The notes: a model not told the origin generated them from the letters alone. A stretch of DNA of 52,496 bases from an uncultured Candidatus Peribacteria bacterium (GCA_964494005.1 CAZBQE010000001.1:8126-60621), one strand, 5' to 3'. Shown: positions 184-51,524, counted from the stretch's first letter. Numbers and translations: made by a program.

Positions 184-2832
184 ATGGCGAACGCTTATCA
201 GCACCAGGAAGTAGAAGCGAAACGGGAGAAATTCCGAGAAGAAAATAAATGCTTCGCAGCCACACTAGATCCTAATAAACCCAATTATAGTATTGTCATC
301 CCACCTCCGAACGTCACCGGAATGCTCCACATGGGACATGTCTTGAATAATAGTATTCAGGATGTTTTGGTGAGACGAAAAAGGATGAGTGGTTACAATA
401 CACTTTGGATGCCAGGAACCGATCATGCAGGTATTGCTACCCAAAATAAGGTAGAGAGAAAACTTGCTGATGAAGGAAAAACAAAAGAGGATTTGGGAAG
501 AGAAGAATTTATCAAGCAGACTTGGGAACGAAAAGAAAAACACGGAGGAATCATAACTTCCCAACTGAGAAAACTCGGAGCTTCTCTTGATCGAGATAGA
601 GAAAGATTTACGATGGACGAAGGACTTTCCCATGCTGTCAAAGAGATTTTCATCAAACTCTACAATGATAATCTGATTTACCAAGGAGAATATATGGTCA
701 ATCGATGTCCTAGGTGTGGAACAGCATTAGCAGACGATGAAGTGGAACACGAAGACGAAGAAGGATTTTTTCGAGAAATAAAATATCCCATCGTAGGGAC
801 TAATGATTTTGTCACTTTGGCAACAACGAGACCAGAAACGATGCTTGGGGATACCGGTATTGCAGTCAATCCAAACGATCCAAGATATAAAGATTTAGTT
901 GGTAAAAAAGTTTTATTACCATTAGTAAACAAAGAAATTCCAGTAGTAGCAGACGAATATGTAGATATGGAATTCTGAACCGGAGTGGTAAAAATGACGC
1001 CAGCGCATGATCCAAATGATTATGAAGTAGGAAAAAGAACAGGACTTGTAATTCTCAATATCTTCACTTCTGACGGAAAGATCAACGAAAATGGAGGTCA
1101 ATATGCAGGAATGGATAGATTCGAAGCAAGAAAAAAGATTGTAGAAGATTTGAAAGCAGGATGATTTTTATGAACTATCAAAAAACATACACATGCGGTT
1201 GGACATTGTTATAGATGTTCAACTATCGTCGAGCCAAGAATTTCCAAACAACGATTTGTTAAAATGGCGCCATTGGCACAACCCGCTATCGAAGTAGTAA
1301 AAAGCGGTAAGATTACTATTCAACCAAAGAGATGGGAAAAAGTATATTATCATCGATTAGAAAATATCAGAGATCGATGTATCTCAAGGCAGATTCGACG
1401 AGGACATAGAATCCCGGCTCGATACGGACCAGATAATCAAGTGTTTGTTGCTCATGATGAGACCGAAGCGCAAGCGCAGGCCGATAAGCATTATGGTAAG
1501 ACTGTAGAATTAAATCAGGAACAGGATGTATTAGATACACGATTCAGCTCTGCATTACGGCCATTTTCAACGATGGGTCGACCGGAAAAAATCAAAGAAC
1601 TTGAAATGTTCTATCCGACAAATGTATTAGTCACCGCAGCGGATATTATTTTTTTCCGGGTAGCGAGAATGATTATGATGGGTATGTACGAGATGAAAGA
1701 GATCCCGTTTCACGATGTATTTCTTCACGGAATTGTGAGAGATGAGCAAGGCAGGAAGATGTCCAAATCCCTAGGTAATTCTCCTGATCCATTAGATTTG
1801 ATTAAGGATTACGGAGCAGACGCCATCAGATTTACAATGATCTACAATACCTCTCAAGGACAGGATGTTCACTTCTCTGATAAGCTTTTGGAGATGGGAA
1901 GAAACTTCGCCAACAAAGTTCGAAATGCAAGCAATTTCGTACTCATGAACTTGGAAGGATTTGATCATACGCAAGTAAATCCAGCTGAATTGAAAATTGA
2001 GCTTGTAGACAATCGAATATATTCTAGACTCTATTCCACGATCCAAACCGTCAATGAAAAATTAGACAAATATATTCTCGATGAAGCTGCCAAAACCGTT
2101 TATGAATTTATCAAATGAGACTTCTGTGATTGGTATGTAGAGATGGCAAAAGTTAGATTGTACAACAACGAAGATGAACAAAGCAAAAATACTGCACAAT
2201 ATATTTTACGAGATGTCCTTGAACAATCATTGAGATTACTTCATCCATTTATGCCGTTTGTGACTGAGGAATGTCGACAACAACTCGGTACCAGCAAGAA
2301 GACAATTATGCTCGAAGACTATCCAAAACTCGACGCAAAAAAGATTTCCGCAGATATCGAATCGGCTATGAATTATATCCAGGAAATTACGATCTCTATC
2401 AGAAATATTAGAGCTGAAGCCAATGTTTCGCCAGCGAAAAATGTTACTGCGTTAGTCAAATCAGTAGATAAAAATGAATTAAAAATTATCGAAGAAAACA
2501 AATGATTTATCATGAAACTTGCAAAACTTGATACGCTTGAGTATGCAAAAGATATAACTAAACCTGATTTAGCAGGATTTAGAGTGGTATGAAAATCGGA
2601 GATCTATATCCCGTTGGCAGGATTGCTCGATGTCGAAGCAGAATCCAAAAAAATAAATGATCAGATAGAAAAACTTGAACAATGACTTACTTCATGCAAA
2701 AGAAAATTAGCAGATGAGACCTTTATTTCCAAGGCACCAGCACAAGTCATCGAAAGAGAAAAAAATAATGAAGCAGATTATCTCGACAAGATAGAAAAAT
2801 TAAAAAAGAATTTGGAATTACTTAAACAATAA
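184..2832 (+). CDS. valS: valine--tRNA ligase
   Basis: One frame-1 reading through 7 in-frame TGA joins track ORFs 184-978, 1264-2118 and 2143-2505. Motifs: HIGH-type GMLHMGH, KMSKS ([14 protein letters not shown]), EF-[TGA][15 protein letters not shown], and a C-terminal coiled coil. True stop is TAA at 2830. Confidence 0.97.
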
Positions 2833-2833
2833 T

Positions 2834-2912
2834 GGAGAATTGAGAATGGAAAATTGAAAAATTAATCTTTCCATCTTTCAATCTTTCCATTCTTTCAATC
2901 TTTCAATCATTC
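2834..2912. repeat. heptad-periodic imperfect palindrome (GAGAATT/GAAAATT words facing TTTCAAT/TTTCCAT words)
   Basis: The left arm ggagaattgagaatggaaaattgaaaaatt faces the right arm aatctttccatctttcaatctttccattctttcaatctttcaat. It fills the valS-femAB spacer. Confidence 0.7.
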
Positions 2913-2916
2913 TTGT

Positions 2917-3906: not shown

Positions 3907-3960
3907 ACACACCGGGTGAGGTGGTCACCAAAGTTGCGAAAAAAGCTGAATTACACAGAT

Positions 3961-3988
3961 TTCCACCCGGGTGGATATTTTTTTTTAC
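3961..3988 (+). terminator. rho-independent terminator
   Basis: A perfect palindrome CCACCCGGGTGG is followed by a T-run just downstream of the FemAB-family gene. Confidence 0.55.
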
Positions 3989-4086
3989 ATTTGTCAACTT
4001 AAAATAGCGATAAGGAAGGTATATTTTATGCTTTTGGATGTATTCTGTCTATAATAGTACTGTGAGCTTTTATTTAGTATCAATCG

Positions 4087-5514: not shown

Positions 5515-5517
5515 GAA

Positions 5518-7077: not shown

Positions 7078-7080
7078 CCT

Positions 7081-9124: not shown

Positions 9125-9127
9125 TTA

Positions 9128-9966: not shown

Positions 9967-10431
9967 ATGCAAATCAATATGATCGCCGCTATGGCGTCCA
10001 ACAGAATTGTCGGCAACAACAACCAGCTTCCTCGACATTATTCTCAGGATCTCCAACATTTCAAAAAAATTACTTCCGGACATATAGTCGTGATGGGCTA
10101 CAATACATTTTTGTCGATCGGAAAACCGCTTCCCAACAGGAGAAATATCGTTCTTTCCAAAGAGCCAATCGAAGGAATAGAAACATTCACGAGTATTGAG
10201 GATATGAAAAAACACCTCGAATTAGAATATATTGATCAGATTTTTATTATCGGATGAGCGAGTATTTATCGTCAATTTCTTCCTATCGCGGACGTCATTT
10301 ACCTCACAGAAATTAAAAAAGCGTATGAAGGAGATACGAGTTTCCCAGAATTTGAGTCTGAATTTGTCGAAGTAGAAAGAACGCCGGATGAGTCAGATGA
10401 AATGGATTTTGTCGTATATAAGAGAAAATAA
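9967..10431 (+). CDS. folA: dihydrofolate reductase
   Basis: MIAAMASNRIVGNNNQLP-[CGA]-HYSQDLQHFKKIT, MGYNTFLSIGKPLPNRRNIVLS and IIG-[TGA]-ASIY match DHFR. The LPWH motif and the GG motif need the recoded codons. Confidence 0.9.
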
Positions 10432-12152: not shown

Positions 12153-12878
12153 TTATACTATACAATATCTCACGATTTCCTCTTTTTCTTTATACATATT
12201 ATGCAGTTCTTTCCAGTTCTCGAGTTTATCGATATCGATGTTACCGATTCTCGTTCTTCTCAGTTGGATCAAAGTTCCACCGAGTCCAAGATCCTTACCA
12301 AGTCGATATGCGATAGATCTGATATAGGTTCCCGATCCGACATCGAGTTTGAGCTGTAAGACAGGAAAATCATATTTCAAAATTTCATATTTCTGGACCT
12401 TCATCACCTTATTTTCTTCCCTTATTTTACCTTTTCTCGCATCATCGTACGACTTTTTTCACGCTATCTTTTTTGCACTAAAAGCGGGGAGTGGTAACTC
12501 AAATTCTGGGATTAACTTATCCAACTTTCTGTTTATCTCCCCCAGGCTTGGCACTTCAACACTTCATGACTCCATTTCAAGACCTACAATTTTTCAATTC
12601 TGCATTCTGTATTCAAAATTCTGAATTTTTTCTCGTATTTCCATGTCCCACGTGTCGGTCACCTTCGAAAAATCAATCGTAGCGATATAAGATTTATCCT
12701 TTCAAATAATCTCCGTTAGATTCTTGGTATCATTATCCAATGCCAAAATCATCAGTCCCGTAGCCATAGGATCGAGCGTTCATCCGTGTCAGATTTTTTT
12801 GTGAGGGATATGTTTTCTGAGAATACGAATGACGTCAAAACTTGTTATTCGTGCAGGTTTGTCTACAGCGAGAAACAT
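12153..12878 (-). CDS. truB: tRNA pseudouridine(55) synthase
   Basis: MFLAVDKPA-ITSFDV, KI-G-HG-G-TLDPMATGLMILALDNDTK, DKSYIATIDFSKVTDTWD and GSGTYIRSIAY match TruB. The frame is continuous through 6 TGA. Confidence 0.9.
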
Positions 12879-15371: not shown

Positions 15372-15764
15372 ATGCATTTGTATCATATAGCATCATTGGG
15401 GAAATTAGTACTTGGAGTAGTAATTATGTTTATTACTTATACTTCTATCAATGTATATGAAGATCCCGTAGTTGGTATAGGACTTGGTATCCTATGACTT
15501 TTTATTGCTGCGCGATGAGCAAGTTTTTATCTGTTTATCATGATACAAAAACGATTTCGTGATGTATCGCCTGATCGTTTGATCAAAGATAGCTATAAGC
15601 TTTCTCTGCTGTTTGGAATATTTGTTCTTATCAATGCATTATTTTTACTCTTGTGATATCGAAGCAAATTCCTTTGATTGATATTGCTCGTAGGATTTAT
15701 TATTTTACAGGTACTTTTATTCTCTGAGCAAAAACAAGAAACTAATGAGTTCCCAGATTTCTAA
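15372..15764 (+). CDS. small membrane protein (130 aa)
   Basis: ATG-started frame through 4 TGA with four hydrophobic spans. It overlaps the next gene by 20 nt. Confidence 0.5.
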
Positions 15765-16062
15765 AACAGAGCTGATAATAGAAAAACTCAAGACCGTCTA
15801 TGATCCTGAGTTCCCTATGATCGATTTATATACCTTGTGATTGATTTACCAAGTAGATATTGATGAACCCAAAAAAATAGTAAACATTCTTATGACGTTT
15901 ACGACGCCATTTTGTCCTATGGCAGACATGATAAAAGAAATGATTCAGAATGCTATTCTCGAGGTAGTGCCTACCTTCACCGTTGAGATAACCGTAACCT
16001 TCGAACCACCTCGGAATCAGACTATGATCAAAGATCCAGATTTACAGAGAATGTTTCAATAG
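15745..16062 (+). CDS. DUF59 / MIP18-SufT-type Fe-S assembly protein
   Basis: LKTVYDPEFPMIDLYTL-G-LIYQVDID, LMTFTTPFCPMADMI and VTFEPP-[CGG]-NQTMI match the family. The conserved PPW needs CGG=Trp. Confidence 0.8.
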
Positions 16063-17763: not shown

Positions 17764-19059
17764 TTAGAAGCTTATAGTACACACCGTTCATTTACCAACC
17801 TTACTACTCATCGCTATCTTCCAGCCATGTTTCTCTACTAATAATTTCACGAGATATAATCACAATCCAAAACTTTTGGTATCCGTCTTCGATCTATCTG
17901 CCTGCCAAAATCTCTCCCGAATGTGGTCGAGATTACTAGCGGAGATTCACTTTCCGCTATCTTTTATGGTAAGTTTTTTCTTGTCCAAAGTTACTTCAAT
18001 ACTTCATTCATCAGGAGTAAATTTGAATGCGTTATCCAAAATATTTTTTACGATGATATTCCAACTGTCTTTGTGTGCTTGTACAACAACATCATTACTC
18101 ATATGTTTTTTGATAGTGATATTTTTTTTCGCATATATTTTTTGTACATCATCGATAGTCGTTTTTGTATAGAGACTAAGGTCTATAAGTTCTGTAGGTA
18201 AATTGCGTAGAGATTCTAGTTTGCTAATAGTTACTAAGGTTTCCAAAAGCGTGTTCATTCATTTAATTTGCTGTTTTATATTACTTAATCCTTGCTCATA
18301 TCATTTCGTCTTCATCGCATAATCGATTTCTGTGCTCATACTCATCAGCGGAGTTTTCAATTCATGCGAAGCATTACTTACAAAGTCTTTGAGACTCAAT
18401 GTTTGTTTATGAATTTTTTCAAACGCTTCATTAAATTTTTCGCTGACTTTGTTGATCTCATCATCGGGATGTCCGGTGATCCCGATTTTTTCATGCAAAT
18501 TGTCGATGTGCAAATTATCGAGAAATCAGAGTAATTCATTTAATTTTTTCAATGAAGATTTTACGAAAAATAGGGAAAGGATATAGGCGATAGCTCAGAA
18601 GAGAAGCATTAGATACAGACTAATTCGGATGAGGTTTTTTTGTACGATGATATGTTGGGTGACGTTGTTTACGATAAGCTGGTTGTTGATTTCCTTGTAT
18701 ATAAAATACATATCATCCACTTTGGCGATATTTTTCCATCGATGAAGTTGAAGTAAGGTTTGTCATTCAGGACTATTGATAGCAAAAATCTCTGCTTCTG
18801 GCATTCTATTTTTTCCGAGGACCATTTTTTGTTGCATCACAGGATTTAGTCTAGGTGGGATGAGTGCTTCTTGTTTTTTATATCGATTCTGAAAAAATAT
18901 TCCATTCGCCAAAAGGCTAAACAGCAATACTTGCAACATCGTGAACAGCGTAAACTTTACACTAATCTGTGTCGAAGTCTTGAGATTAGAAAAATTGGAT
19001 CTCTCTCGAAGATTCTGAAAATGGGTTTTTATGTCTTCAATTTTTTTTTCAATATACAT
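17764..19059 (-). CDS. sensor histidine kinase
   Basis: Two TM spans, the H-box SNASHELKTPL, the N-box NILDNAFKFTP, and DSGKGIS...HI-[CGG]-ERFWQADRS...G-LGLYLVK. Four track ORFs are joined through TGA. Confidence 0.85.
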
Positions 19060-20757: not shown

Positions 20758-20939
20758 CGCTCATTTATAGAATAAAATAAAAATGTCAATTATTTTTACC
20801 TATATATCGGCATATATACACAATACCAAGTATTTTTCAAGGACAAAAGTTGCAAAATATAGAGAAAGGAATAGAATTATGATAGAACTTAGAACGTAGA
20901 TAGTAGAACTTAGATATTGAATAGTATTTATTTTATTTT

Positions 20940-21443: not shown

Positions 21444-21446
21444 AAA

Positions 21447-21986: not shown

Positions 21987-22010
21987 TTTTATCCTTTATG
22001 GTGTATAATC

Positions 22011-22940: not shown

Positions 22941-24044
22941 TTATATTTTCATGTCGATATCATAGTTCTTCTCTTCACAATAGTTCTTTGCTTTTTCATA
23001 GAGTTCATTACATTTCGTTACTCGTTGTTCTTGGCCTTCTCATCTATCGATTTGCTGCTGATATCGTTCTTTTCTTCTTAGGATTTCAGCCAATGAAGCG
23101 ATACAGCAGACTTCATCATTGGTAATTGCGAATCATGCACAACTTATACCCATATCCGTAGGGGATTGATATTTGACTATATAATTTTTGTGCGTAACAA
23201 TTTTTTTTGCGATACTCATGACAACATCAAATGCTTCCATATCTCTGTTGTAATTCACAGAATCTTGTCCATAAGCATTTTTGTGGTAGCTATCCATCAT
23301 ATTACCATCACCAATATCTACGGTTGCGGCTTCGTATGCCAAATTTATTGGATGTTCAATTGCTAGGTTTCGAACAGGGAAAGTTTCGTATTTTGCATAT
23401 CATGACTTAATATCGATTTGATGGTCGTTATACATTTGTCCCAGACAAGTGGACATTTTCCCGCTGCTAGAAGCAGCTCAAGTTACCAAAACCAAATTCT
23501 TTGTTAGTGGTATATGATCGTCGTTGCCGAATCCGTCCTCACTGAGGATAAAATCCGTATTGTGTGGATATCAGGTTATCTTATATCTTTCTCGTACTCT
23601 GTATTGTTTTCTTTGAAATTCTTTTTCAAATTCGAGGATAATATCAAATCTGTCAGTAACATCAATAGTGTTGATAACGATATGTGGTTTGATTCAGATA
23701 TTTTTTTCTATGATTCTGATCATCTGATAGACGTACTCTTTGTAGTCGATATCCTGATTGCTGAGTTGTCTATTGGATAAAATGTCGTTTGCATTTACAC
23801 AAAATAATATTTCTGCCTGATCTTTCAATGACGCAAAAATCTGTTTCTTCGATTCCGGATCAAATCATGGAAGGACTCTTGCTGCGTGTGCGTCATACAT
23901 AAACTTTCCTCCAATTTCCAAATACAATCTTCCACCACCAAAATTAGCAATCCTATCAAGAATTTTTTCTTTTTGTAATCTGATATATTTGTCACCATCA
24001 AAACCGTGTTTTCTGTAGTTGATGATGTCGCTGCTATTGAGCAT
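22941..24044 (-). CDS. DUF1846 (UPF0371) family protein, C-terminally short
   Basis: [54 protein letters not shown][CGA]-NLAIEHPINLAYEAATVDIGD and YQSPTDMGIS are colinear with UPF0371. It stops about 130 aa earlier than family members I recall. Confidence 0.8.
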
Positions 24045-24240: not shown

Positions 24241-27200
24241 CTATTTTACTATTTTTCCATTATCTAGTCTAATTATGTCATCTGCGAATTTCAAAATACT
24301 CTTGTCATGCTCGATCATAAGAATAGTGTCTCCCTTATCCAAAAACTGTTTGATGACTTTCATAAGCTTAATGATATCATCAGCATGCAATCCTACGGTT
24401 GGCTCATCAAGAAAGTACATCGTATGTCATTTGTAGGTTTTCAAAAGATGTTTTACAAGTTTAAGTCTTTGACTTTCTCCACCGGAAAGTGTATGTGCGG
24501 GTTGTCCCATCTTGAGATAGCCGAGTCCGATATCTACCATGAGTTGTAATTCTTCGCGGATATGGTCCATCTCAGAAAAGAATTCCAAAGCGTCTTTGAC
24601 ATACATTTCCAAAATTTCAGAAATATTTTTTCCTCTCCGTTTGATTCACAAAATTTCTGTTTTGTATCTTTTTCCATTACAGAGTTCACAAGGTATGTAG
24701 GTGTCCGGTAGAAACTGTAGTTCTACTTTTTTGTAGCCATAGCCGTCGCAGGCAGGGCAGGCTCATTTTTTTGAATTGAAGCTGTAATAGCTTGCATTAA
24801 ATCAGAGATATTTGCTTTCCATGGTTCCTGCAAAGAGTTTCCTAATATGATCAAAAGTTCCGATGAAAGTAGCAGGACAAGATCTCGGTGTTTTTCCTAT
24901 ACTGGTTTGATCGACATAGATAGTATTTTTGATGTCTTCATGTCCGCTAATAGTTTCCACCGCAAGATCTTGGTAGAATTCTTGGATGGCTAGGTTTTCG
25001 TAGTGTTCGTATTTGTCCTTGTGCATGACAGGTGCTGCGAGAATATCAGTCCGATTCCATCCTTTTTTCAAAAGTTCCAATCTGATAAAACTCTGGATGA
25101 ATTTCTGTTTCTCATTCAAAAATCTAAACAGCGTCGTATACATCAGCGTAGTTTTTCCAGCTCCAGAAGGGCCAGTGATGATAGTGAACGTTCCTAATCT
25201 AATTTGCGTATCAATACTTTGGAGATTATGTTTAGATGCTTTTTTGATGGTGATGAAATTATTGCTCGGTGTATGACTAAATTCTGCTGTGACTTTTTTC
25301 TTTCACAAAATATATTGTGCTGTCAGGGTGTTGGATGTCAAAAATTCATCATAAGGTCCATTGAACATCACCTTGCCTCAGAAATCTCCAGCTCCCGGAC
25401 CTATTTCTACAACCCAATCAGATGCTTTGATAAATTCATCATTATGTTCTACAACGATAATCGTGTTGTCCATCTCTCTTAATTTTTTTATTGCCGTAAT
25501 CGCTCTAACGATTTCTCTGGTATCGAGTCCAATCGTAGGTTCATCTAAGACATAAATAATTCCCGTTAGTTTGTTTCCGAGCTGTTTGGCTAATCTCAAT
25601 CTTTGGATTTCTCATCACGAAAGTGTGTCGATTCATCTCTTTAGACTCAAATATCCGAGTCCCAGATCTTGGATAGTCTTGGCTCTATCGATGAGTGGAT
25701 TGACGATTCTTGCTACAAGATTTTTGTCTTTGTTGTTATGTTCTTTGTACAAATCAATAAATGCAATCAATTCATTCAATGGCATTTTTTGTAATTCTGC
25801 GATGTTGAATTTAGTTCAAAGCTCCAAGTTTCAAGCTTCAAGCTGCACTTTAGACGACTTTAAACTTCAAGCTTTAGACTTTAAGCTAAGAAATACATTC
25901 AGACTTTCTTTCTTCAATTTCGTTCCATTACATTCAGGACAGGTTTTCATATCGAGCATCACTTGGAAATCTACGGTCAAAAGTCATTTTGCATATTGGT
26001 CTTTGATAATTTCCTCGATTCCTTTGTAATACATGCTCATATATTTTCCTCCATAATTCACTCTAATCAATTCTTCGTCTCAGAAAAGTACGACATGCTG
26101 AAATCGTTCAGGGAGATTTTTCCATGTTTTGTCGGGATCGATACTGTATTTCTGCGCTAATTTCAAAAGCAATGATTGTCCGAGATTTGAATCTCTTCGT
26201 GGCAAAATAGCTTTCATATATGGACTTTCCGGATCTAATATTTTGTCAAAATCCACCTGCAAAATCTCTCCAATTCCATGACAGGTAGAACATGCTCATT
26301 CCTGTCTATTTGGTGAAAAATGCTGCGGCGTAAATTCCGGATAGGTGATATTACAGTCTGCGCAGTACATTTTGTCGGTAAACCGTTTTATATTTGAAAA
26401 ATCTGAAGAATTGTCTGAAGAATCTGATATAACCGAATTTTTTTTGTTTGATGATTTTTTCATGGGTTTCTCAGATTTTTCTGTTATGTATATTCCGAAC
26501 TTTTTAAACTCGCCGAGTATCTTGATGATATCTTCTTTCAATCTTCATAATTTAGCTTCTTCGACGGTGACTCTATCGTAGATACCATAGGTCTGGATTG
26601 GGAAATATCCGATTGGAATATTCGGCGTTTCGAGGTAGAAATATTCTATAGGATTCAATTCTGACGAATCTGAAACATCTGATATATTGTTTTTTTTCTT
26701 TGTTGTTTTAGTCGTATGTTTTTCAGATATATCAGATGTTTTCTCAGATTTTTCAGCTACTATTAGGTAGCGGGTAAATCATTTCCCCTTTTCTACTTTA
26801 TTTCTATTTTTTCTGACGAATTCCATGAGATCTTCTTTCTTTTCAAATTTTCCTGATTCTTGCAAAAGATATATTTTCTGATTGAGATAATGGTTTTGGA
26901 TGTCATTCATGATTTGTTCGATGGTCTGTGGTTTGATTTCTTTTCCACAGTTATAACAGTAACTATCACCGAGCTTTGCATAGAGCAATCTCAGATAATC
27001 ATCGATTTCCGTAAGCGTTCCTACCGAACTTCTCGAATTTCCTCACTTTTTATTTTGTTCAATCGCGATAGCAGGGGAGAGTCCGGTACAGTGGTCGATA
27101 TCCGGCCTTTCTCCCAAATTGAAAAATTGTCTCAAGTACGAGCTGAGTGATTCTATATATCTATATTGTCCTTCCTTATATATAGTATCGAATGCGAGCG

Positions 27201-27366
27201 ATGATTTACCAGAACCGGAAACTCACGTGATAGTAATCAACTTATTTTTCGGGATTTCAATGTCGATATTTTTCAGATTATGAGTTTTTACTCCTTGAAA
27301 GGTAATCTTATTTTCCATATTTCCGACATTCTGGATGATATGTTTTTCTACAGATTTCTTTGCCAT
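24241..27366 (-). CDS. uvrA: excinuclease ABC subunit A
   Basis: Nine track fragments share one frame through many TGA. Motifs: [18 protein letters not shown], zinc modules, [23 protein letters not shown] and [10 protein letters not shown]. True stop is TAG at 24241. Confidence 0.95.
25812..25890. repeat. AAAGC/AAGCT-family heptad repeat inserted in frame inside uvrA
   Basis: gttcaaagctccaagtttcaagcttcaagctgcactttagacgactttaaacttcaagctttagactttaagctaag encodes [26 protein letters not shown] at a site where UvrA normally has only a few residues. Confidence 0.75.
26396..26483. repeat. ATCTGA-family imperfect palindrome in frame inside uvrA
   Basis: The arm gaaaaatctgaagaattgtctgaagaatctgatataacc faces gggtttctcagatttttctg. 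It encodes [28 protein letters not shown]. Confidence 0.65.
26659..26756. repeat. ATCTGA-family imperfect palindrome in frame inside uvrA
   Basis: The arm ttctgacgaatctgaaacatctgatatatt faces tttcagatatatcagatgttttctcagatttttcag. It encodes [33 protein letters not shown]. Confidence 0.7.
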
Positions 27367-30684: not shown

Positions 30685-30708
30685 ATGTATGATTGAAGTA
30701 AAGGAGTA

Positions 30709-34957: not shown

Positions 34958-35269
34958 ATGCGCAACAAAAATCTAGAACTAAAATTGATCATGCTCTGTA
35001 ATGAAATCTTTGATTTCTTATGTGCTCCCGGAAATGGGGCTGATATATTGGATATCAGTATAAATGAAATTAGGGGAATGGGAACCATTAGATTAGAAAA
35101 GGTGTCGGAAGAAATAAAAGACGAAATAGAGATTGGAAAATATGAGATATGTTATAAGTGGCAAGAAGGAAATCTTGTCCAAGTGTCACTGTATCATCCC
35201 AAGTACTGTATACTCTACAGTAAGAGTGTGGTACCAGGAACCCAACGTAGGATGTCTCTATCTTTTTAA
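34958..35269 (+). CDS. hypothetical protein (103 aa)
   Basis: Uninterrupted ATG ORF followed by a textbook terminator. Its 3' end overlaps the convergent DUF58 gene. Confidence 0.4.
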   Translation: MRNKNLELKLIMLCNEIFDFLCAPGNGADILDISINEIRGMGTIRLEKVSEEIKDEIEIGKYEICYKWQEGNLVQVSLYHPKYCILYSKSVVPGTQRRMSLSF

Positions 35270-35985
35270 TCCATTAGCAACTCTATCTCACCGCTTGGCT
35301 TTTTGGCTGGAGCGGTTTTTTTTAAGAAAAATTGCTCATAATTTTGCCCATATTCCGAGTCGATCGGGAGTTGAAACAAGAAAACGATATGCTGTTTTTT
35401 GAGGTAGTCGATAAGCTTTTTCGCTTCCTCATCCATTGAGAGAAGATCAGAAAAGATAACGATGGCTCTTCTTTTTTTATTCTGCACAGCAGCGCGCAAA
35501 AATTCATGAAGACGACTTGTATACAAGGGTTTCGTTTTTTGTACCTGAGCGAAAATCTGTTCTAGTGCTGTACGGAATTCGTTTCCATGCTGTTTACTTT
35601 TCATATAAATCAGGTTTGAATTTCCTCGTCGTCTATATGTTGGATAGTATATTGTGACGGCTATTTGCTGTTTTTTGCAATAAGACAAAATATCTTCCGC
35701 ATAGGCAAATGCTTGTTCTCGATTGGGATATTCGCCGCCTCTTCGGTTGTAGTTGATATCCAGAAAAAGATCCAAAGTTAAGGATTTTTCTTGCTGGAAA
35801 ATATTTGTGTAGAGTTCTTGATATTTCGCTGCGCGTTTTCGATTGATCTGCGATGAGCTATCTCCAGCAGAATATTTTCTTACATCAACTTTTTCGCTCC
35901 CCGATCATTTCATGATATGCTGAAAAACACCAAATCGTTTCCCGACTATCGGTTTCGTAAGTTTGATGCTAAATTTTTTTTGCAT
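35266..35985 (-). CDS. DUF58 family protein
   Basis: GSGSEKVDVRKYSAGDSSSQIN-[CGA]-KRAAKYQELY matches the DUF58 signature R-Y-GD---IDWK. It is followed by LDLFLDIN and VIFSDLL. Confidence 0.75.
35290..35324 (+). terminator. rho-independent terminator (lies inside the 3' end of the opposite-strand DUF58 gene)
   Basis: ccgct-tggctttttggctgg-agcgg followed by TTTTTTTT. Confidence 0.55.
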
Positions 35986-37440: not shown

Positions 37441-37566
37441 AAAATTATAGATGAGAGATGATAAATGATAGATAAAGGACTTTATTTTTTATGAACTATT
37501 ATAATTTTACTATAGTCTATTTTAGCTATTCAATAATTTATCATTTCAAATTTATCATTTATCATT
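37441..37566. repeat. heptad-periodic imperfect palindrome (GATAAAT family); right arm overlaps the rsmE 3' end
   Basis: The arm attatagatgagagatgataaatgatagataaagg faces caataatttatcatttcaaatttatcatttatcattg. Confidence 0.75.
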
Positions 37567-38268
37567 GTTTTTTAATAGTCGTGCTCCGATGATAGCAGCA
37601 GTTTCCATTCTTAATATCGTTGTTCATAATCCGATGATTTGATATTTCTTGGTCGAAAATTTCTGATAGTCTTTGTTAGTTAATCATCATTCCGGACCAA
37701 TGATTCCGATACTATTTTTTTCTGATTTTTCGATGTTTTCTCGAGATGATTCTTGTTCTTTTTTATCGAAGATAATAATATCTTTGTTGTTGATATATTC
37801 CTGAATGTCTCTAGCGAACGAGATTTCCGGAATTTTCCATCCTCGTGATTGTTCTACAGCTTCCTTACTGATTTTTTGTAATCTTTCTTCTTTTTTTTCA
37901 TTCCATTCTTTGATTACTGATCTTTCTGTTGGTCGAAAAATAATTTCATCAATACCGATTTCACTTAATTTTTGGATAATCAATTCCGCTTTGTCCCATT
38001 TGTTCGGCATAGCGACAATCATCTTTATGTTCCCTGGATTAACGTGATGGTGTGTTTCAGAAAGAATTGTTCCTTGTAATTCTTTATCGTTCCAATTATC
38101 TATACGTACTTCATATCTTGTTTTTTCTGCTTCATTAATAGGATCCTGTATTCGTAGTATATCACCGATGTTTGCTCTCATGACTTTTCTTACTTGCGAC
38201 AAAATTTCAGCACTCTCAATAGTTACTGTATCTGCTTTTTTTTTGTACGTTGTGATAAATAGCTGCAT
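37552..38268 (-). CDS. rsmE: 16S rRNA (uracil1498-N3)-methyltransferase
   Basis: MQLFITTYKK, IGIIGPE-[TGA][TGA]-LTNKDY (the conserved GPEGG) and IIGL-G-TTILRMETAAI match RsmE. Confidence 0.85.
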
Positions 38269-38274
38269 AACAAG

Positions 38275-38409
38275 AAAAGATTGAAAGATTGAAAGATTGA
38301 GACATTGAAAGATTAATTTCTCTCCCGCTTTGCGCGGACTTCACTTCGTTTCGCATTTTTCAATTCTCCATATTTCCATTTCTTCATATTTCCATGTTTC
38401 CATTTCTCC
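38275..38409. repeat. heptad-periodic imperfect palindrome (GATTGAAA family) with a GC-rich core
   Basis: The arm gaaaagattgaaagattgaaagattgagacattgaaagatt faces tttttcaattctccatatttccatttcttcatatttccatgtttccatttctcc. Confidence 0.75.
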
Positions 38410-38457
38410 GTATTTTTGTAGCATTTTGGACTAATAATGCAATAGGACTTCTGTAAG

Positions 38458-40243: not shown

Positions 40244-40711
40244 ATGAACGAACAATTTATGAGAGAAGCGATCAAGTTATCGCTAGAAAATATGCAGAAA
40301 AATGCTGGATGACCTTTTGGTGCAGTTGTTGTCAAAGACGGGGAAATTGTTTGAAAAGGACGGAATCAAGTAATATCTTCCAATGATCCAACTGCTCATG
40401 GTGAAATTGTCGCTATCCGTGATGCCTGTAAAAATCTTTGAACATTTGATTTGTCTGGATGTGAAATCTATACTTCATGTGAGCCATGTCCGATGTGTTA
40501 TGGAGCGATTTCGCGAGCAAGAATCGATAAGATGTACTACGGAAATACAAAAGTTGATGCAGCGAATATTGGGTTCGACGATAGCGCTTTCTGGGAAGAT
40601 ATCAAAAAAGAATTACCTCAGAGAAATATTCCTGTAGAGCAATTATTACACGATGAGGCTTTGGAAGTGTTTAAAATATGGAAGAATAAAGAAGATAAAA
40701 TTATTTATTAA
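40244..40711 (+). CDS. guaD: guanine deaminase (CDA fold)
   Basis: AG-G-PFGAVVVKDGEIV, SNDPTAHGEIVAIRDACKNL-G-, CEIYTSCEPCPMCYGAIS-[CGA]-ARI and GFDDSAFWEDI are closely colinear with Bacillus GuaD (AIYWARP). Confidence 0.85.
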
Positions 40712-40811: not shown

Positions 40812-41999
40812 ATGAAAACCGATTTCCCTATTTTCAAAAACAATCCCTGAATGACATTTCTTGATAATGCTGCTTCGACGCAGAAACCACAATACGTCAT
40901 TGATGGTGTCTCCGAATTTGTCGCACATGATTATGCAAATATTCATCGCGGAGTATATTCCTTGTCAGAAAAATCTGAAGAAGTATATTATCGTTCCAAA
41001 GAATTAGTCGGTGAATTACTCAACTGCAAAGCGAGCGAAATTGTTTACAGCTACAATTCTACCTACGCGATAAATTTGATCGCTCAATCGCTTGTGATTT
41101 CCGATATAATTAATTCTTGAGATATAGTTCTCCTGTGAATTCGAGAGCATCATGCCAATATTCTTCCACGACAGGTTTTAGCAGAGAGAAAATGATTTAC
41201 TGTAGAATTTTTCACTATCAATGATGACTACGACATCGATCGAAATGATTTCGACAAAAAATATACAGACAAGGTAAAAGTTGTTTCTGTGGGACACGTT
41301 TCCAACGTCACCGGAAAAATTTATGACGTCAAAAAGATAAAATCCAAGCTTCGTGATGATACCTTTTTTCTCGTGGACGGTTCGCAATCAGTACCAAATT
41401 TCCCGGTCGACGTGCAGGATATTGGTTGTGATTGTTTGGTATTCACGTGACACAAAATGATGGCGTACACTGGGATCTGAATTATTTATTTAAAAAAAGA
41501 ATGGATCAAGACATTAGTGCCGATGATTCGTGGCTGAGGGACGATTGAAGATGTAAGTGTCGAATGACATACCTTAGCGACCAATTCCGACAAATTCGAG
41601 GCGGGGACACCAAATATTATTGGCGCTGTTTCGTTGTTGAAATCATTGGAATATATCAAATCTATCTGATGAATGGAAAAAATTCGAGAACACGAACAAA
41701 ACTTAGTTAAATATTGTTTAGACGGATTCACAAAATTCAAGGACAAAGTTGAGGTTGTAGGACCGATGAATGCTGATAGGGTTGCTGTTTTTTCTTTCGT
41801 ACTTCCAAATAATAAAAATTTCAACAACATCGGAGAAATATTCGCAGAACACAATATCGCAGTTCGTTGCGGGGGACATTGCGCGTATCCGATTCACAAA
41901 CGTTTCAATACACCATGAACCTGTAGAATGAGTGCATATGTGTACAATGATGAAGACGATATTGCGAAATTCTTTGAGGTGTTAACTAAAATAAGCTAA
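40812..41999 (+). CDS. sufS: cysteine desulfurase (SufS/CsdA-like, class V aminotransferase)
   Basis: FLDNAASTQKP, ANIHRGVYSLS, EHHANILP-[CGA]-QVLAE, SVGHVSNVTG, DGSQSVP, FT-G-HKMMAYTGIG and RCGGHCA match the family. The frame is continuous through many TGA. Confidence 0.88.
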
Positions 42000-45100: not shown

Positions 45101-45403
45101 TTGTGAACAAATGTTTCAATGAGATATATAAGTAAAATATTGAGTGTTGATGATCCAATGAAAATTCTTAGTAAAATGAATGCTGCGACAAAAATAGATG
45201 AGTTTGAAATTATCCTGAAAAGTGCAAAAAATGCTGATGTTGATGATATGATCCACGCATTAAAAAGCATTAATAAATTTGATGGATTCCATAAACAATT
45301 TTTGAAAAATGTTGGTGTGATGAGCGATGCTGTACGTACATTGAAAAACTCACAAAAACTAATGAAAACGTTGAAAATTCTCGCAAAAGTGCCTATAATC
45401 TAA
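42125..45403 (+). CDS. giant membrane-anchored helical protein A (1092 aa), unknown function
   Basis: Seven track ORFs in frame 2 (42125, 42326, 42959, 43226, 43901, 44477, 45119) are joined. I translated every gap and found only TGA, no TAA/TAG. Stop is TAA at 45401. It has an N-terminal coiled coil, an acidic tract, hydrophobic hairpins and K/E-rich helical text. Confidence 0.75.
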
Positions 45404-45432
45404 TTTTTATTTGATAATCTTATATATCTACG

Positions 45433-48400
45433 ATGGTTGTAGAGTTGAAGATAGAAAAATTGAAGACTCAAGTAGACCAGATAAAAGCTGACCTTATTTT
45501 TCTACAACAAGAAGCATCAAAAAATGTTGTAGATTCTAAAAAAACAGAAGAATTAGAAAAAGAAGTAAACAAGGTAAAAGCAGATATTCAAAAAGAATTA
45601 GATGAGTTGAAGTGAAAGACTGACCTTTTGTCTTCCAAAAAATCCCAAAAGCTGGAAGAAATGTTGATTACTATAGAGACATCAGCATCAGAATTAGCTA
45701 CACTCAAATTGTGAGTAAGTGAGGATGTGTCTTCTATCGAAGAGGAAGAAGATGAAGAAGAGGAAAAGAAAGAAGAGGGAAAAGGAGAAGATGAAAAAAA
45801 ACCAGTAAAAAATTGGTTTAAACAACAAATAGATGGATTCACTGATTCTACAGAAGAACATCATGGATGGAAAAATGTCGCTCGTGTAGCATGAGGGATA
45901 GGAATAGTGGCAATATGAATTCGAGGAATCAAAAAATTATTTGGATTGGGAAAAAAAGAAAAAGATAAAGAAAAAGATACGTCTCCATCATCAGAAAAAG
46001 AATCGACTGATGAGAAAAAATGATTTTGGGAGAGTTGATTCGGAAAATTTTTTAAACGGACAGGAATCGGAACGGGTGCATATTATATTACGCGTGGACT
46101 TGTGAGCGGTAATCGATGATTCAAAGATTTTTTTAATCGAAAGAAAAAAGAAACAGAGGATGATGCTAAAAAAGAAAAAAATGCTCGAGTAGAAAAACAA
46201 AAACAAGAAGTGGAGGATATAGCTTCTGAAGTTGACAAAGTAAATAATGAACAAGATCCTGATCAACAACATCAAGGTGTGCAAAACATTGAAACGCTTA
46301 TTGTTACCAAAAAAACGACCATAGAACATAAGATTGAAGAATTGGAAAAAGAATGAAAAGAAAAAAATAAACAAGAGATAGAAGAATTGGAGGATATACT
46401 AAAAAAACTTGAAGGATATGAAAATGAAATATACCAAATCGCTGACAGAGAAAGCGTACAATGACCTATTTCTTGAGCAAGTGAAGACATAGAATCTCCA
46501 GAAGAAGATGATGGTTTGAGTCATCGGACTCATGTACCTGGAGCAGCGATAGCGGTGACAGGATGAACAGCTGCAGGCCGATGAACAGCCAAGATTTTAC
46601 AGAAAACAAAACTTGCAGCAGAATCAGTACCAGAAGCAAAGGTGATATCTCAGACAAGAAAAGGATTCGAAAATATAGTACAAGGGCTTGAATATAGGTT
46701 ACTCGATGATCAATTACTGGATGTGCAAAAACAAAATATAAAGAAATCGATACAATATTTCAAAGAGGCAGGAGAAAATGCTGATGTTATAGAAGAATTG
46801 AAAATATGGCAAAAACTTTGAGATAAGTTACCTATAGAGACATTGAACGCTTTGGATATAGATCCGATTTTAGCAAAACAACTAAAAAACTTCTCCAATG
46901 ACGCAGAATTTGTTGAAGCTATAGCAAAAGCTAAAAGTGAAACACAGATAAAAAATATTTTCAAGGCTAGGGGAGTTATTAATGTTCCAGATGATGTAGT
47001 AAAATTATTGAAAACTGCTAAATATGCTAATGAAGTGAAAGCTATTTCTAGGGTACTTTCAGTAACAAGACCGATCAAAGCATTGGGAAGATGATTGAGA
47101 ATGGTTCCGTTTATTGATTTGGCTGCAGGAGGAATAGATGTATGGTTATATTTTATGGAAGCGAGAGAAGCTGATCTTATCAAAAAAACTAATGAACTAA
47201 GATGATCAAACAAACAACAACAAGCAAATATGCATCTTGTACTTGGTGCAATTGATCTCGCTGTCGGGGTAGGTGCAAGTGCTATTATATTTGCTTCAGC
47301 TTGTGCTTCTTCATGACCTCCATGATGGGTGGTAGGTGTTGTAGCTGCTACTGCTGCGTTAGTAACCTGGTGAGTGAGAGAGGTGGCGGATACGTATTAT
47401 TATGAATTGGTTGATTTTTATCTTAGAAACAAAGAAGATTATGTAGAAATGTATAGATGAGAGATTAAATCAGCGATTCTTCAGGCGACTGTTCGTGGGG
47501 ACGATTCTTTTTCTTTGTCATGAACGGAATCGTTTGCTGAGATATTTAATCGAAGCAATAGTATAGATAAAAATAAAAAAGTAACTTTGGAAGACGCATA
47601 TCGAACAATGATATATATTGAAGAAAAAAAGCATTATCCCACAGTTGGAGTACTTAATCCAAATTATCCCAAAGATCCTGATCAACCATTGGAGTGAACG
47701 GATCTCGAACATTATACCAAAGAAAAAGAGAAGTTGGATAAAATTATAGCATTGAGAATGGAATATATCAAAAAGTTTTTGCCACACACTACTACGAGTA
47801 CAGATAAGTCAGATTATAATAAATATATTGCTGATATACAATGAGCGAAGTGAATACATGCGATAGAACAGATTGTGGCAGATTCCAAAACGTATCAATA
47901 TATGAAACAAGATACAGAGTTTGCAGGATACATAGATATAAAAAAATATCAAGCAGCACAAAGAACATCATTAAAAAAAGAGAATGAAGTGTGGTTTGAT
48001 CAATTAGAATCTATGTACAAAAAAGATCCAGCTACGATAGTAGAGTTGTATTATTATGTGATAGAATATGATATGGTAGTCAAAGATGAAGAGAGTTATC
48101 AAAAAGAATATGTATGAGTTTCGTCTCAGATCTCGTTTATCAAAAGATATTATGAATATACACTAGCTCATATTCCACCAGAAAAAAAGATGTTTGTGGG
48201 AAATATTTATGATATTCCTTATACAAAAACAGAAGAAATGCTAAAAAATATGGAATCAGGAAAAATAGACATGAATCCTATGGCATTTACGGAACAAGAC
48301 ATCAAGAAGCGTTTGGTGTATGGACTAGAGATCAATAGATTTGAAGAATCACATGCTGAATATACATCAAATATCGGACAAAATATTATCTATAGAATAG

Positions 48401-50385
48401 CAAAGGAAATACATGGATATGAAGGAGGAAACAATCATCTTGATTTGATACTGTATTTTACGCCAGAGAAAAAAGATTCTTTGGGAATGTATTTTGATGA
48501 TGGCTGGTATATCAATGTAAATAATTGATCAGATAGAGAATTTACATTAAATTTTTTAGATACAGCAACTCCTGAAAATATAGTATATCGATTTTTTGAA
48601 GGGCATGGTTTCACTAGAAATACTATAGATACTATAGATACAAGTACAGAAAATTCTGATGATGTACTTAATTTAGAATACCGTAATAGAGTAAGTAAAA
48701 TTGTTAAGGAAGAAAAAATTTTCCAAACATCAGCAAAAAATCGTGAAGTACAAAAAGAAATAGTAGAATACATCTCTCTCTATGGAAAAGAAGCTTATGT
48801 AAAGTTGCCATATAATTTGATAAATGATGCCAAGAGAGCATGATTAGGGAATGTGGAATATTTTTTCTTTAAATATAGTGGAGGAAATATAGATGCATGC
48901 ACATCCAAAGCATATGTAGATGAAAAAATCAATATCGAATCAATATCATGAGAATGAATACTTTTCAAAAAAATGTATATAGAAAATGTTCGTGAAGAAT
49001 TTTCCGATGAAGAAAAAAAATATATCGAGTATGTTGAATATGCTCATGATAGATTAGCACAACTAAGGGCGATAAAATGAGTATGATCACATGAAGATGA
49101 ATTAGATTTACCTGAAGAGTTTGAAAGACTCATAGGTGATAAATACAAAGAACGGTTAAATTTTAAAGAATCCTTGTTGTGATATGATCCAAACGTAGCA
49201 GCCAAAGAGTTGGTGCAAAAATATGCTATGTATCATGACTATTTTGAGAATTTGTATATGGCTATATTGATAGAAGTATCGTGACGTAAATTTAGTAATG
49301 ATATAGATAGTTATGAATATTTGCTATCTACATTATCACACATGGATATATGATTCTTTGATTTTGAGAAAAAGATATTGAAAGAGGGTATCTTGTCCAA
49401 AAAAGAAACAGAAAAATTGTATAAGATAATAAACGAAAAAAAGATATTTGGAAAAACAATACAAGAGTTGATACAATCATCAGACGAAGAAGAAAGAAAT
49501 AAAGGATTCTGGTGAGCGAAACAGATACTCAAAACATTTTTAGAGTCAAAAACGTTGTCTTTGGATGAAAACGCAAGGATAGAGAACATCAATAGTGGCG
49601 AAATTACAGAGAGAACTTGGGCTTTTGCTCTATGACCTTTTTGACCTGTTGCAGGAATAGCTGCAAATGTAAATTATGATATGAGAAAAAAAACAGTTAT
49701 GGAAGATATGTTGGAAAAAAATCTTAGAGAGGAGTTATATTTATGATATGTGGATATTGATACAAGCAATATAGCAAGTAAAAATCCAGAAGAAATAAAA
49801 GTAAAAAAACTGACAGAAAAGGAACAAAAAACCTACGATATCTCTCTCGAAACACTCAAAATGATAGAGTTAACACAAAATAATGTAGTACGACAAGATC
49901 AAAGAGGAAATCTTATGTTTGACCCAGAAAAAAGTACAATTACCAGTCGATGAGCAACAGTAGGTATAGATGTCGAAGTTATGAAGGTACAAGGATTGGA
50001 TATTGTGTGTAAAGATCTTTTGGAGCTTTTGTATATGGCTAATTTGATCAATTGGGTCAAAGGTAAACTTTTGAAAGAACATCCAAAACATACAGGAGAA
50101 TTCTTTTTTGGTAGAAGAACACGTACATTGTATGTAAATGATTCAACACGAAAAAGTGGACGAATGAATGATACGGATGTGGTAAGTATAGATGCTATAA
50201 AAGAAAAATATCCTAAGTTACTTAGCGATATTAACAAACAAACATTTTTAACTTATATTAATTCATTGTGATTGTCATGATGATCTTCAGTAGCAGCTAC
50301 AGCAAAAAAAATCGGTGATAAATTTGTTGATAAAATAACTGTTGAAGAAAATAAAGTTATAAGAAATGCTTGAGTATATAGATAA
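45433..50385 (+). CDS. giant membrane-anchored helical protein B (1650 aa), N-terminal paralogue of A
   Basis: Frame 1 is continuous from ATG 45433 to TAA 50383. I checked it codon by codon and found dozens of TGA but no TAA/TAG. It joins track ORFs 45433, 46843, 47875, 48190, 49750 and 49981. Confidence 0.75.
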
Positions 50386-50423
50386 TAAAATAAATAAAAT
50401 TTTAATTAATCACATACTATCTC

Positions 50424-51524
50424 ATGACTGAAGAAATTATAGAAGAAAATATTAAGGATTTGATACCTGAGGATATCACTGGTGAAATGAGTGAAGATAT
50501 TTTGACTCTCAAAAAAGAAATAGCCAAAAAATATATAGAGGAGCTCAAAGAAAAAAAAGATATGTGAATATGAAAATTACTTATCGGAGAAGGAAAGTCT
50601 CTCGAAAAATATCTCGTATCAGAAAATAAATGAGATCAGATAGTTGATACTATCAAATGAAATCTGATGGATAAGTTTTTTTGATCAGTAGATAAAGGAT
50701 CTTTTGTGATTGGATGAGTAACTTACAATTCTATTTTTGAGTATCTTAAACCAGTCAAAGAAAAATTGGATAATGCCAAGACGGAAGCAGAACTCAAAAT
50801 TCTAGAAAACGAAATACTTACGGCATCTACGATAGTTGCTCCTGCTGTTATTGCTTCTACAGGAGTTTCGACAAATGAAATACTTCCAGAATCTAAAGAA
50901 GAGATTACTGATAGGAGAGAGGCGGTGCTTGCTAATCTACAGGCGGTTTTGAATCAGGACGAAAAAGATGATATTGAATATAAACGATGAGGTTATAGTT
51001 CTATTGAAGCGTGATTGGATTGTTGAGGATTGATAGTCTATTGTGCCAATCAGGCATGACTGAAGGTTGGGGGAAATAGCAGGGAATTATTTCAGAAATT
51101 TCCGAGCAAAAAATTGGAAGTTGATGATAATGGCGCTATTGTTACTGATGTATCTCAGTTCAAAGAGGGGGATCTCTTGGTATTCGATTCGATCGATCCT
51201 GCATATCATGATACTCCAAAAAATAGATGACGACAGCGCGAAATTATTTGATCTGAGGGACAGAATATCCATCCACATCATTTCGCTTTCATCAAGAGTT
51301 TTGATCGCACAAGAGGGATTATACATATCGTGGAATCAAATGGTTCACAAGGAGTTACCGAAAGCGAATGTAGTATTGCAGACCGATTGGATAAAAACAA
51401 AAAGAAAGAAAAAATATCTAATTTACGGGCTGTTCACGTGAATTACGATGAATTGGAAAAACTTCCAGAAATAGATCTGGCTAATTTAGAAGATCTTCCT
51501 AATGCGAAACGTGCCGCAGCATAA
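50424..51524 (+). CDS. NlpC/P60-family peptidoglycan hydrolase with an N-terminal helical region
   Basis: The C-terminal domain reads EYK-[CGA][TGA]-GYSSIEA-G-LDC-G-GLIVYCANQAGL...EGDLLVFDS...HHFAFIKSF...GIIHIVESNG. This gives the Y-WGG motif and the catalytic Cys/His layout of NlpC/P60. Confidence 0.8.

Follow-up and report, generated by a model that had tools for sequence, protein, structure and literature searches.

Reassignment of CGA and CGG from Arg to Trp has been described in Absconditabacteria by Shulgina and Eddy (eLife 2021; PMC8629427), and it was later re-detected or restated (PMC13092985; bioRxiv 10.64898/2026.04.02.715157). In the o__Absconditabacterales table of the original paper, UBA5124 (genome 9) is listed with UGA as Gly and CGA as Trp; its tabulated tRNAs include GCG, UCG, CCG and CCA, with ACG being absent (PMC8629427). 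The published accounts still term such sense-codon reassignments computational predictions (PMC8629427), and no proteomic proof of Trp at CGA or CGG was found in the literature on this code.

The stretch of DNA analysed here (52,496 nucleotides, below referred to as the window) comes, with a probability of roughly 95% judging by its sequence, from the chromosome of an uncultured bacterium of the order Absconditabacterales (candidate division SR1), in which UGA encodes Gly, CGA and CGG encode Trp, and AGA, AGG, CGU and CGC encode Arg. Its GC content of 34.9% lies inside the published range (0.26-0.38; PMC8629427). Related genomes were fetched using uvrA (24241..27366, minus strand; 2 CGA and 3 CGG codons) as an anchor. 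The UvrA protein has 75-83% identity to eight GTDB species loci, among them UBA5124 (75-77%); a ValRS cluster named Candidatus Absconditicoccaceae shows 72% identity. Since UBA5124, a genome of the original paper, is among the nearest relatives, the window is placed in that clade, as the earlier note had supposed; the screen it mentioned, reporting CGA/CGG to Trp in Absconditabacteria, indeed exists (PMC8629427). The change of these two codons in this clade is already known and is not new.

Reading frames in the window are fragmented under translation table 11 and become long once only TAA and TAG are treated as stops, which makes TGA a sense codon, since the long ORFs are obtained only when it is read through. 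The resulting 50 ORFs (16,017 codons) contain 125 CGA, 24 CGG, 90 TGG and 257 TGA codons, along with 297 AGA, 43 AGG, 56 CGT and 27 CGC. Gly as the meaning of UGA is supported by TGA columns of ValRS, which mostly hold G in homologues, by the profile test described below, and by codon substitution, in which TGA sites swap with GGN in relatives. All 24 codons on which the earlier note based its claim were confirmed at the positions it gave by a direct check of the sequence, including 4 on the minus strand (17917, 23370, 30262, and 32683). According to profile columns, Pfam scores, solved structures, paralogues, and codon substitution, CGA and CGG are Trp codons in the window, and AGA, AGG, CGT, and CGC are kept as Arg. 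No site supporting an Arg meaning for CGA or CGG was found among the columns, Pfam matches, structures, paralogues, and relatives.

The valS gene (ValRS, 882 aa; 184..2832, plus strand) contains 18 CGA, 3 CGG, 4 TGG, and 7 TGA codons, and its Arg codons comprise 28 AGA and 4 AGG, with no CGT or CGC. When compared with 103 homologues, each having <78% identity, W appears as the commonest residue at 20 of the 21 CGR codons, and as the second commonest at the remaining site 1420 (Y 68, W 34). Among the 24 W-majority columns, the window has CGA or CGG in 20 and TGG in 4 (hypergeometric P=8e-36). R is the commonest residue at 30 of the 32 AGA/AGG columns, the exceptions being 2233 (K 51, R 46) and 2701, a variable column with R outside the top three. 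Most of the valS CGR sites cited previously are TGG in relatives. The profile test scored each of the 20 amino acids for each codon, using a profile derived from 78 ValRS sequences that follow the standard code. The highest score for CGA belongs to W (1654.2 bits), followed by Y (1598.1) and R (1556.6), with a W-R difference of +97.6; for CGG, W scores 1574.7 bits vs 1558.9 for R (+15.8). The controls were all assigned correctly (TGG to W, TGA to G, AGA and AGG to R). CGA falls at Trp columns in 18 of 18 cases and CGG in 3 of 3. The suggested placement of valS CGR codons at Trp positions is therefore confirmed by columns, profile test and P-value alike, and the proposed codon-to-profile column inference, run on ValRS, returns W for both codons.

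These values bear on the reading in which CGA and CGG still encode Arg and the lineage has swapped many conserved Trp residues for Arg. It requires R in 20 of the 24 ValRS columns with a W majority, it carries the 97.6-bit penalty in the profile test, and it faces genuine Arg columns without any CGA or CGG. R does stand at CGR sites in the public protein entries for close relatives, but this is solely a product of translation with table 11, 4, or 25. At the nucleotide level, TGG occurs in close relatives at 64 of the 98 covered sites, and AGA, AGG, CGT, or CGC at none. Retention of Arg is thus effectively refuted as far as sequence comparison goes, and its probability is negligible.

Codon substitution was evaluated using 13 related loci, which cover genes of the window only up to ~38.4 kb; for the final third, the assignment relies on Pfam, PDB, and paralogues. 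At {CGA,CGG,TGG} sites, 535 of 568 comparisons stay within the set and none leads to an Arg codon, while at Arg-family sites 866 of 1,074 stay in the Arg family and none leads to CGA, CGG, or TGG. Where a W-family codon meets one from outside the set, the partner mostly encodes Y, F, or L, and for Arg-family codons it is mostly K. The 98 covered sites are part of 149 CGR sites in the window, and the 64 with TGG are counted as having it in at least one relative. The free exchange of Trp codons among relatives arises because TGG, CGG, and CGA are joined by single synonymous transitions (TGG<->CGG<->CGA). The proposal that conserved Arg is encoded by AGA, AGG, or CGT is likewise upheld, by ValRS columns and the profile test for AGA and AGG, and by codon substitution.

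Decoding might also be ambiguous or split. In the first case CGR would yield a mixture of Trp and Arg, and in the second CGA would mean Trp and CGG something else or nothing. Codetta reports CGG as '?' or 'Arg' in several Absconditabacterales genomes including UBA5124, where CGG is very rare, and according to Shulgina and Eddy ambiguous translation is excludable by experiment alone (PMC8629427); CGG sites are also few in the window (24 vs 125 CGA). However, all 3 ValRS CGG codons lie at W columns with W exceeding R by 15.8 bits, and window CGG pairs exclusively with CGA, CGG, or TGG in 52 of 52 comparisons with nine relatives. Moreover, CGG is the commonest Trp codon in one relative (L008, 44% GC), in which CGR makes up ~80% of Trp codons, and the frequency of CGR where Trp is invariant speaks against misincorporation to any large extent. 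Ambiguous or split decoding is thus very unlikely on this evidence, all of it comparative, although some insertion of Arg at CGR is possible.

Trp for both codons is further supported by other genes, with Pfam bit scores being higher for CGR as W than as R in eight families besides ValRS (+1.5 to +9.2). The largest gain belongs to sufS (40812..41999, plus strand; 4 CGA), for which Aminotran_5 rises from 339.7 to 348.9 (+9.2); the CGA at 41169 (HHANILPWQ) occupies the LPxQ site, where three solved SufS/CsdB proteins have W (VPWH/LPWQ/VPWQ), as anticipated. It is followed by the DUF58 protein (35266..35985, minus strand; 6 CGA, the INWK one at 35839) with 32.6 vs 40.6 (+8.0), also in line with the motif proposed. 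The DUF1846 protein (22941..24044, minus strand; 4 CGA) changes from 363.9 to 370.7 (+6.8), and at its FETFPVWNL site (CGA 23370-23372) relatives have CGA twice, TGG twice, and CGG twice, in agreement with W. The NlpC/P60 protein (50424..51524, plus strand) gains the same amount (NLPC_P60, 23.5 vs 30.3, +6.8), and its YKWGG motif is borne out by the codons, CGA at 50985 being followed by TGA in AAA CGA TGA GGT (K-W-G-G). For folA (DHFR; 9967..10431, plus strand), the DHFR_1 score is 163.5 bits when CGR is translated as R and 170.0 when it is translated as W (+6.5), and three solved DHFRs have W at LPxH, matching the LPWH suggested for CGA 10033. The guaD-type deaminase (40244..40711, plus strand; CGG at 40361) shows 96.7 vs 100.8 for dCMP_cyt_deam_1 (+4.1). 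Bacillus subtilis GuaD (1tiy) indeed has AIYWAR at its AISWAR site (CGA 40514), and the Arg of AIRDA is CGT (40418) and aligns with R of AIRKA in 1tiy. Smaller differences are observed for UvrA_DNA-bind (33.6 vs 37.4, +3.8) and for Methyltrans_RNA in the rsmE-type RNA methyltransferase (37552..38424, minus strand; 5 CGA), with 126.6 vs 128.1 (+1.5).

The remaining single sites depend on relatives. In the DUF59/FeS_assembly_P protein (15745..16062, plus strand), the EPPW codon of the earlier note stands, with CGG at 16012 and also in 4 of 4 covering relatives; the Pfam score is uninformative there, the R and W translations scoring equally because the position lies outside the domain envelope. 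The histidine kinase (HisKA and HATPase_c; 17764..19059, minus strand) has 4 CGA codons in addition to the CGG at 17917-17919 within HI-W-ERFWQADRS, where relatives have CGG three times, TGG once, and CGA once. In truB (12153..12878, minus strand; 3 CGA), two CGA codons align with G or D in solved TruBs. This possible counter-example to Trp was ruled out, since TGG occupies both sites in two of the relatives, L013 and L017, which points to lineage-specific Trp residues.

Paralogues inside the window lead to the same assignment. For two membrane proteins without a Pfam match (28729-30684 and 30709-33231, minus strand), the alignment of TGG 30262 with CGA 32683 is reproduced. Two large proteins (42125-45403 and 45433-50385, plus strand; 13 and 15 CGR codons, respectively) likewise show the expected pairs of TGG 42725 with CGG 46057, TGG 42782 with CGA 46114, and TGG 42806 with CGA 46138. 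The paralogue alignment adds four TGG/CGA or CGA/CGA pairs to those cited, namely CGA 30418 vs TGG 32842 and CGA 29839 vs TGG 31864 in the former, and CGA 42695 vs TGG 46027 and CGA 42611 vs CGA 45922 in the latter.

According to codon usage, Trp in the window is encoded by CGA in 52% of cases, by CGG in 10%, and by TGG in 38%, with CGR thus reaching 62%; across the sublineage, the relatives that the earlier note proposed to inspect bring this to about 60-80%. Per 10,000 ORF codons the window has 78 CGA and 56 TGG. The published reassignments are described as early-stage: per 10,000 Pfam columns, CGA does not exceed 37 and UGG does not fall below 35 (PMC8629427). The most advanced genome in that work has CGR in 61% of Trp codons, close to the 62% of the window, with the former measured in Pfam columns and the latter in ORF codons. 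The effect of the measure is visible for UBA5124, for which the 23-kb locus used here gives 55 CGA vs 60 TGG and PMC8629427 gives 23 vs 63.5. The Trp triple TGG:CGG:CGA is 0.37:0.09:0.54, and the analogous Leu triple TTG:CTG:CTA is 0.68:0.16:0.17. With CGR past UGG in the sublineage, one speculative and rather unlikely explanation is that selection favours moving Trp away from the UGN box, in which tRNA-Gly(UCA) can wobble onto UGG, so that UGA to Gly would have driven CGR to Trp. Abundance of tRNAs or mutation context could equally explain Trp codon usage.

Neither the window nor the 14 relatives' loci scanned contain genes for tRNAs, TrpRS, ArgRS, or release factors. A candidate decoder comes from L023, a metagenome contig that uses the same code: for its FtsW, translating UGA as W in place of G costs 53.5 bits, and translating CGR as W in place of R adds 8.5 bits. 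This contig was found by a pattern requiring a Trp-like acceptor stem and shares no gene with the window, its tie to the window's organism being inferred from the common code only. The tRNA on this contig folds as a cloverleaf, has the anticodon UCG, A1:U72, G73, and U20, and matches E. coli tRNA-Trp exactly at positions 26-33 and in the anticodon stem; the acceptor stem and D-loop type are also shared with the latter. These features suggest that the SR1 tRNA(UCG) originated from tRNA-Trp rather than from tRNA-Arg. The decoder would be tRNA(UCG), in many genomes together with tRNA(CCG), having G73, A1:U72, and no A20, and such Trp identity features would lead to charging by TrpRS, not ArgRS, as a proposed mechanism. 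CGU and CGC would be read by tRNA-Arg(GCG), and tRNA-Arg(ACG/ICG), which is able to read CGA as well, would be absent.

In plant mitochondria, CGG was once believed to encode Trp and is really C-to-U edited to UGG. Given this precedent and the single C/T difference between CGG and TGG, correction at the RNA level could in principle operate here, with no reassigned tRNA required. CGA, however, dominates (125 of 149 CGR), and edited CGA would become UGA, which is Gly here, thus making a second edit necessary at every CGA site. Trp-like tRNA(UCG) is, moreover, present in the same-code contig, and such tRNAs are reported in published genomes (PMC8629427). Editing is therefore extremely unlikely.

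A possible mechanistic analogue is provided by Mycoplasmatales, where UGA became Trp via tRNA-Trp(UCA), which arose from tRNA-Trp(CCA). In both cases the new Trp codon would be served by a tRNA-Trp derivative with an altered anticodon; Mycoplasmatales, however, capture a stop codon, whereas SR1 captures a sense codon. In Bacillota with CGG to Trp (Anaerococcus, Onthovivens/RFN20 Bacilli; PMC8629427), a CGN Arg codon is likewise taken by a tRNA with Trp identity at low GC. There, in contrast, CGG alone changes, CGA is Arg via tRNA-ICG, there is no tRNA(UCG), and UGA terminates translation, while reassignment in the window concerns CGA above all and UGA encodes Gly, so that the Bacillota pattern does not apply. 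NCBI table 25 (SR1/Gracilibacteria) has UGA to Gly in common with the window but keeps CGA and CGG as Arg, and using it here would mistranslate 149 of 239 Trp residues. The closest likeness is to the Absconditabacterales code, with which the window shares three reassigned codons, a low GC content, and the predominance of AGA among Arg codons. Its codon usage differs from the published one in degree, the ORF-codon and Pfam-column measures being not equivalent.

According to conservation, Pfam scores, solved structures, paralogues and substitution among relatives, CGA and CGG (together CGR) encode tryptophan and not arginine in the window, which is the reading that the earlier note had proposed from the sequence alone. 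All codons it cited are in place, four of them (17917, 23370, 30262 and 32683) on the minus strand. The GC content of the window is 34.9%. Table 11 yields short, broken ORFs, whereas long ORFs are obtained only with TAA and TAG as sole stops, and TGA is therefore a sense codon; the valS ORF encoding ValRS (184–2832), for example, reaches 882 aa when TGA is read through. Codon usage was counted in 50 called ORFs, which comprise 16,017 codons and 91.5% of the window: CGA 125, CGG 24, TGG 90, AGA 297, AGG 43, CGT 56, CGC 27, and TGA 257.

Orthologues from 13 non-redundant loci of relatives were aligned with the window codon by codon. At window sites with CGA, CGG, or TGG, 535 of 568 comparisons give a codon of the same set in the relative and none gives an Arg-family codon; at sites with AGA, AGG, CGT, or CGC that set is kept in 866 of 1,074 comparisons, and CGA, CGG, or TGG again appears in none. 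Relatives cover 98 of the 149 CGR sites. At 83 of the covered sites no relative departs from the Trp set, at 64 one or more relatives carry TGG, and an Arg codon occurs at none. The residue that replaces a CGR-coded one is usually Tyr, Phe, or Leu; at replaced Arg-family sites it is mostly Lys. Gene coverage by the relatives ends at approximately 38.4 kb, and the evidence for the last third of the window comes from Pfam, PDB, and paralogues. The paralogue pairs to which the earlier note had pointed all show TGG/CGR exchange within the window. Among the large or paralogous membrane/surface proteins, two pairs (28729–30684/30709–33231 and 42125–45403/45433–50385) have no Pfam match, and neither do the two genes tested at 19642–20757 and 22011–22712; conservation of these proteins, which lie within 19642–22712, 28729–33231, and 42125–50385, is limited to close relatives.

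For ValRS, 120 homologues were collected with a query in which CGA and CGG were masked as X. Among the 103 homologues with identity below 78%, W is the commonest residue at 20 of the 21 CGR columns, the exception being column 1420 (Y in 68 and W in 34). R is the commonest at every AGA/AGG column except 2233 (K 51, R 46) and 2701, which is variable. All 24 W-majority columns are either CGR (20) or TGG (4) in the window (hypergeometric P = 8e-36). A profile was then built from 78 homologues having no R at any CGR column, which belong to standard-code organisms, largely Fusobacteriota, and the window ValRS was scored for all 20 amino acids in turn, placed at one codon type per run. The profile selects W for both codons: CGA scores 1654.2 bits as W, 1598.1 as Y, and 1556.6 as R, and CGG scores 1574.7 bits as W versus 1558.9 as R. 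The controls return W for TGG, G for TGA, and R for both AGA and AGG. As a separate observation on valS (184–2832), the nearest ValRS sequences outside the SR1 clade are those of Fusobacteriota (Ilyobacter, Hypnocyclicus, and Fusobacterium, 65–69% identity); since other Absconditabacterales are barely closer (70–72%), these identities suggest an ancient horizontal transfer of the gene.

Pfam scores of ten other proteins were also compared with CGR translated as R and as W. In favor of W, the score rises by 6.5 bits for DHFR_1, 6.8 for DUF1846, 3.8 for UvrA_DNA-bind, 8.0 for DUF58, 1.5 for Methyltrans_RNA (RsmE), 4.1 for dCMP_cyt_deam_1, 9.2 for Aminotran_5 (SufS), and 6.8 for NLPC_P60. The difference is 0 bits for FeS_assembly_P (DUF59), in which the CGR site lies beyond the domain, and −0.8 bits for TruB_N. 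As for solved structures, the sites of DHFR, GuaD, and SufS named in the earlier note are indeed W, and the remaining CGR sites of these proteins correspond to varied residues, Arg being at none. TruB (12153–12878) was considered as a counter-example, as two of its CGA codons fall at the positions of a conserved G and a conserved D in solved structures, and translation as W lowers its Pfam scores by 0.8 and 1.3 bits. It was, however, rejected: the relatives' loci L013 and L017 have TGG at both Trp positions, 10 (KPA-W-ITS) and 192, and Trp there is therefore lineage-specific.

Regarding the decoder, no tRNA genes are found in the window or in the 14 scanned loci of relatives, and an Rfam scan of the window gives no match. 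Metagenome contigs were scanned for a Trp-like acceptor stem (AGGGG...CCCCU-G73) combined with a YCG anticodon. One of the contigs with a match (L023, 14 kb, 35% GC) has ORFs that require UGA as a sense codon; reading UGA as Trp and not Gly costs its FtsW 53.5 bits in Pfam score, whereas reading CGR as Trp and not Arg adds 8.5 bits. Its tRNA folds into a cloverleaf with anticodon UCG, A1:U72, G73, and U20, and is identical to E. coli trpT at positions 26–33 and in the anticodon stem. Judged by its sequence, this tRNA, with an acceptor stem imposed by the search pattern and on a contig sharing no gene with the window, fits the published Trp-identity criteria and hints at a CGR decoder descended from tRNA-Trp; the anticodon would then have changed from CCA to CCG, and from CCG to UCG in a second step. 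The scan also returned a tRNA-Trp-like gene with anticodon CCG instead of CCA on a 66%-GC soil contig (L018, 2577–2649, minus strand) and, on a contig of 27% GC that uses UGA as a stop (L021, 2934–3004, plus strand), a tRNA(CCG) that has G73 and whose acceptor stem is Trp-like; this contig may belong to one of the Bacillota CGG→Trp lineages. Other matches, tRNA-Glu genes and non-tRNA sequences, were set aside.

A UvrA scan reports eight GTDB species representatives with 75–83% identity, namely seven MAGs labelled "uncultured Candidatus Peribacteria bacterium" and Patescibacteria group bacterium UBA5124. A ValRS cluster with 72% identity contains a protein named Candidatus Absconditicoccaceae. 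Protein searches find no identical copies of the window proteins on record, and the organism appears to be a species separate from the eight representatives. At its very end (52412–52496) the window has a perfect 30-bp tandem repeat of 2.8 copies, translated as a repeated MRHAMNITQK peptide within a short ORF, which may be the reason why the contig stops at this point.

Under tables 11, 4, and 25, Arg is wrongly placed at about 0.9% of the window residues, i.e., at 62% of all tryptophans, including active-site and core positions. The ValRS records of close relatives (P0001–P0017) show R at the CGA and CGG codons of the DNA, and either W or G at its TGA codons; the clade's database sequences are therefore wrong at most Trp sites, which harms homology searches, structure prediction, and metaproteomic databases. 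Together with its relatives, the window makes a compact and clean test set, with 149 CGR sites and closed TGG/CGG/CGA exchange, that is suited to targeted proteomics; no proteomic check of CGR sites was found in the searchable literature.

The window also allows a modest note on how advanced the codon takeover is. The CGR share of Trp codons is 62% in the window, and for loci of relatives that comprise about 4,400 ORF codons or more it is 48–80%. The locus L008 (CAYSER010000001.1, 44% GC) has CGG as its main Trp codon (CGG 55, CGA 35, TGG 22), with ~80% of Trp codons being reassigned ones. Across all window ORFs, the Trp triple TGG:CGG:CGA is 0.37:0.09:0.54 versus 0.68:0.16:0.17 for the Leu triple TTG:CTG:CTA. 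TGG is thus rarer than the base-composition analogy with Leu predicts, a shift that would be compatible with selection against UGG beside Gly-decoding UGA.

The report of CGA/CGG→Trp in Absconditabacteria to which the earlier note referred does exist: Shulgina and Eddy (eLife 2021, PMC8629427) describe both reassignments on top of UGA→Gly, with supporting tRNAs, and state that translation can be established by experiment alone. The finding is repeated in NAR 2026 (PMC13092985), and a 2026 preprint (bioRxiv 10.64898/2026.04.02.715157) detects it again across NCBI assemblies. Another 2026 preprint still terms prokaryotic sense-codon reassignments computational predictions. The relative UBA5124 (GCA_002414185.1) is genome 9, o__Absconditabacterales, in the source table of PMC8629427, where it is given UGA=Gly, CGA=Trp, the tRNAs GCG, UCG, CCG, and CCA, and no ACG. 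In the published table the CGR share of Trp codons is at most 61%; because that usage is counted per Pfam column and not per ORF codon, no new extreme is claimed here. For UBA5124 the two measures differ about 2-fold, with CGA 55 vs TGG 60 at one locus (L010, DHYS01000028.1, 7,175 ORF codons) and CGA 23 vs TGG 63.5 per 10,000 Pfam columns genome-wide (PMC8629427), and the idea that reassignment has gone further in the window than in all published genomes was dropped; counting by Pfam column may understate reassigned codons. As far as sequence comparison goes, CGA/CGG→Trp in this window is an already known reassignment, established computationally, which the window confirms rather than discovers.
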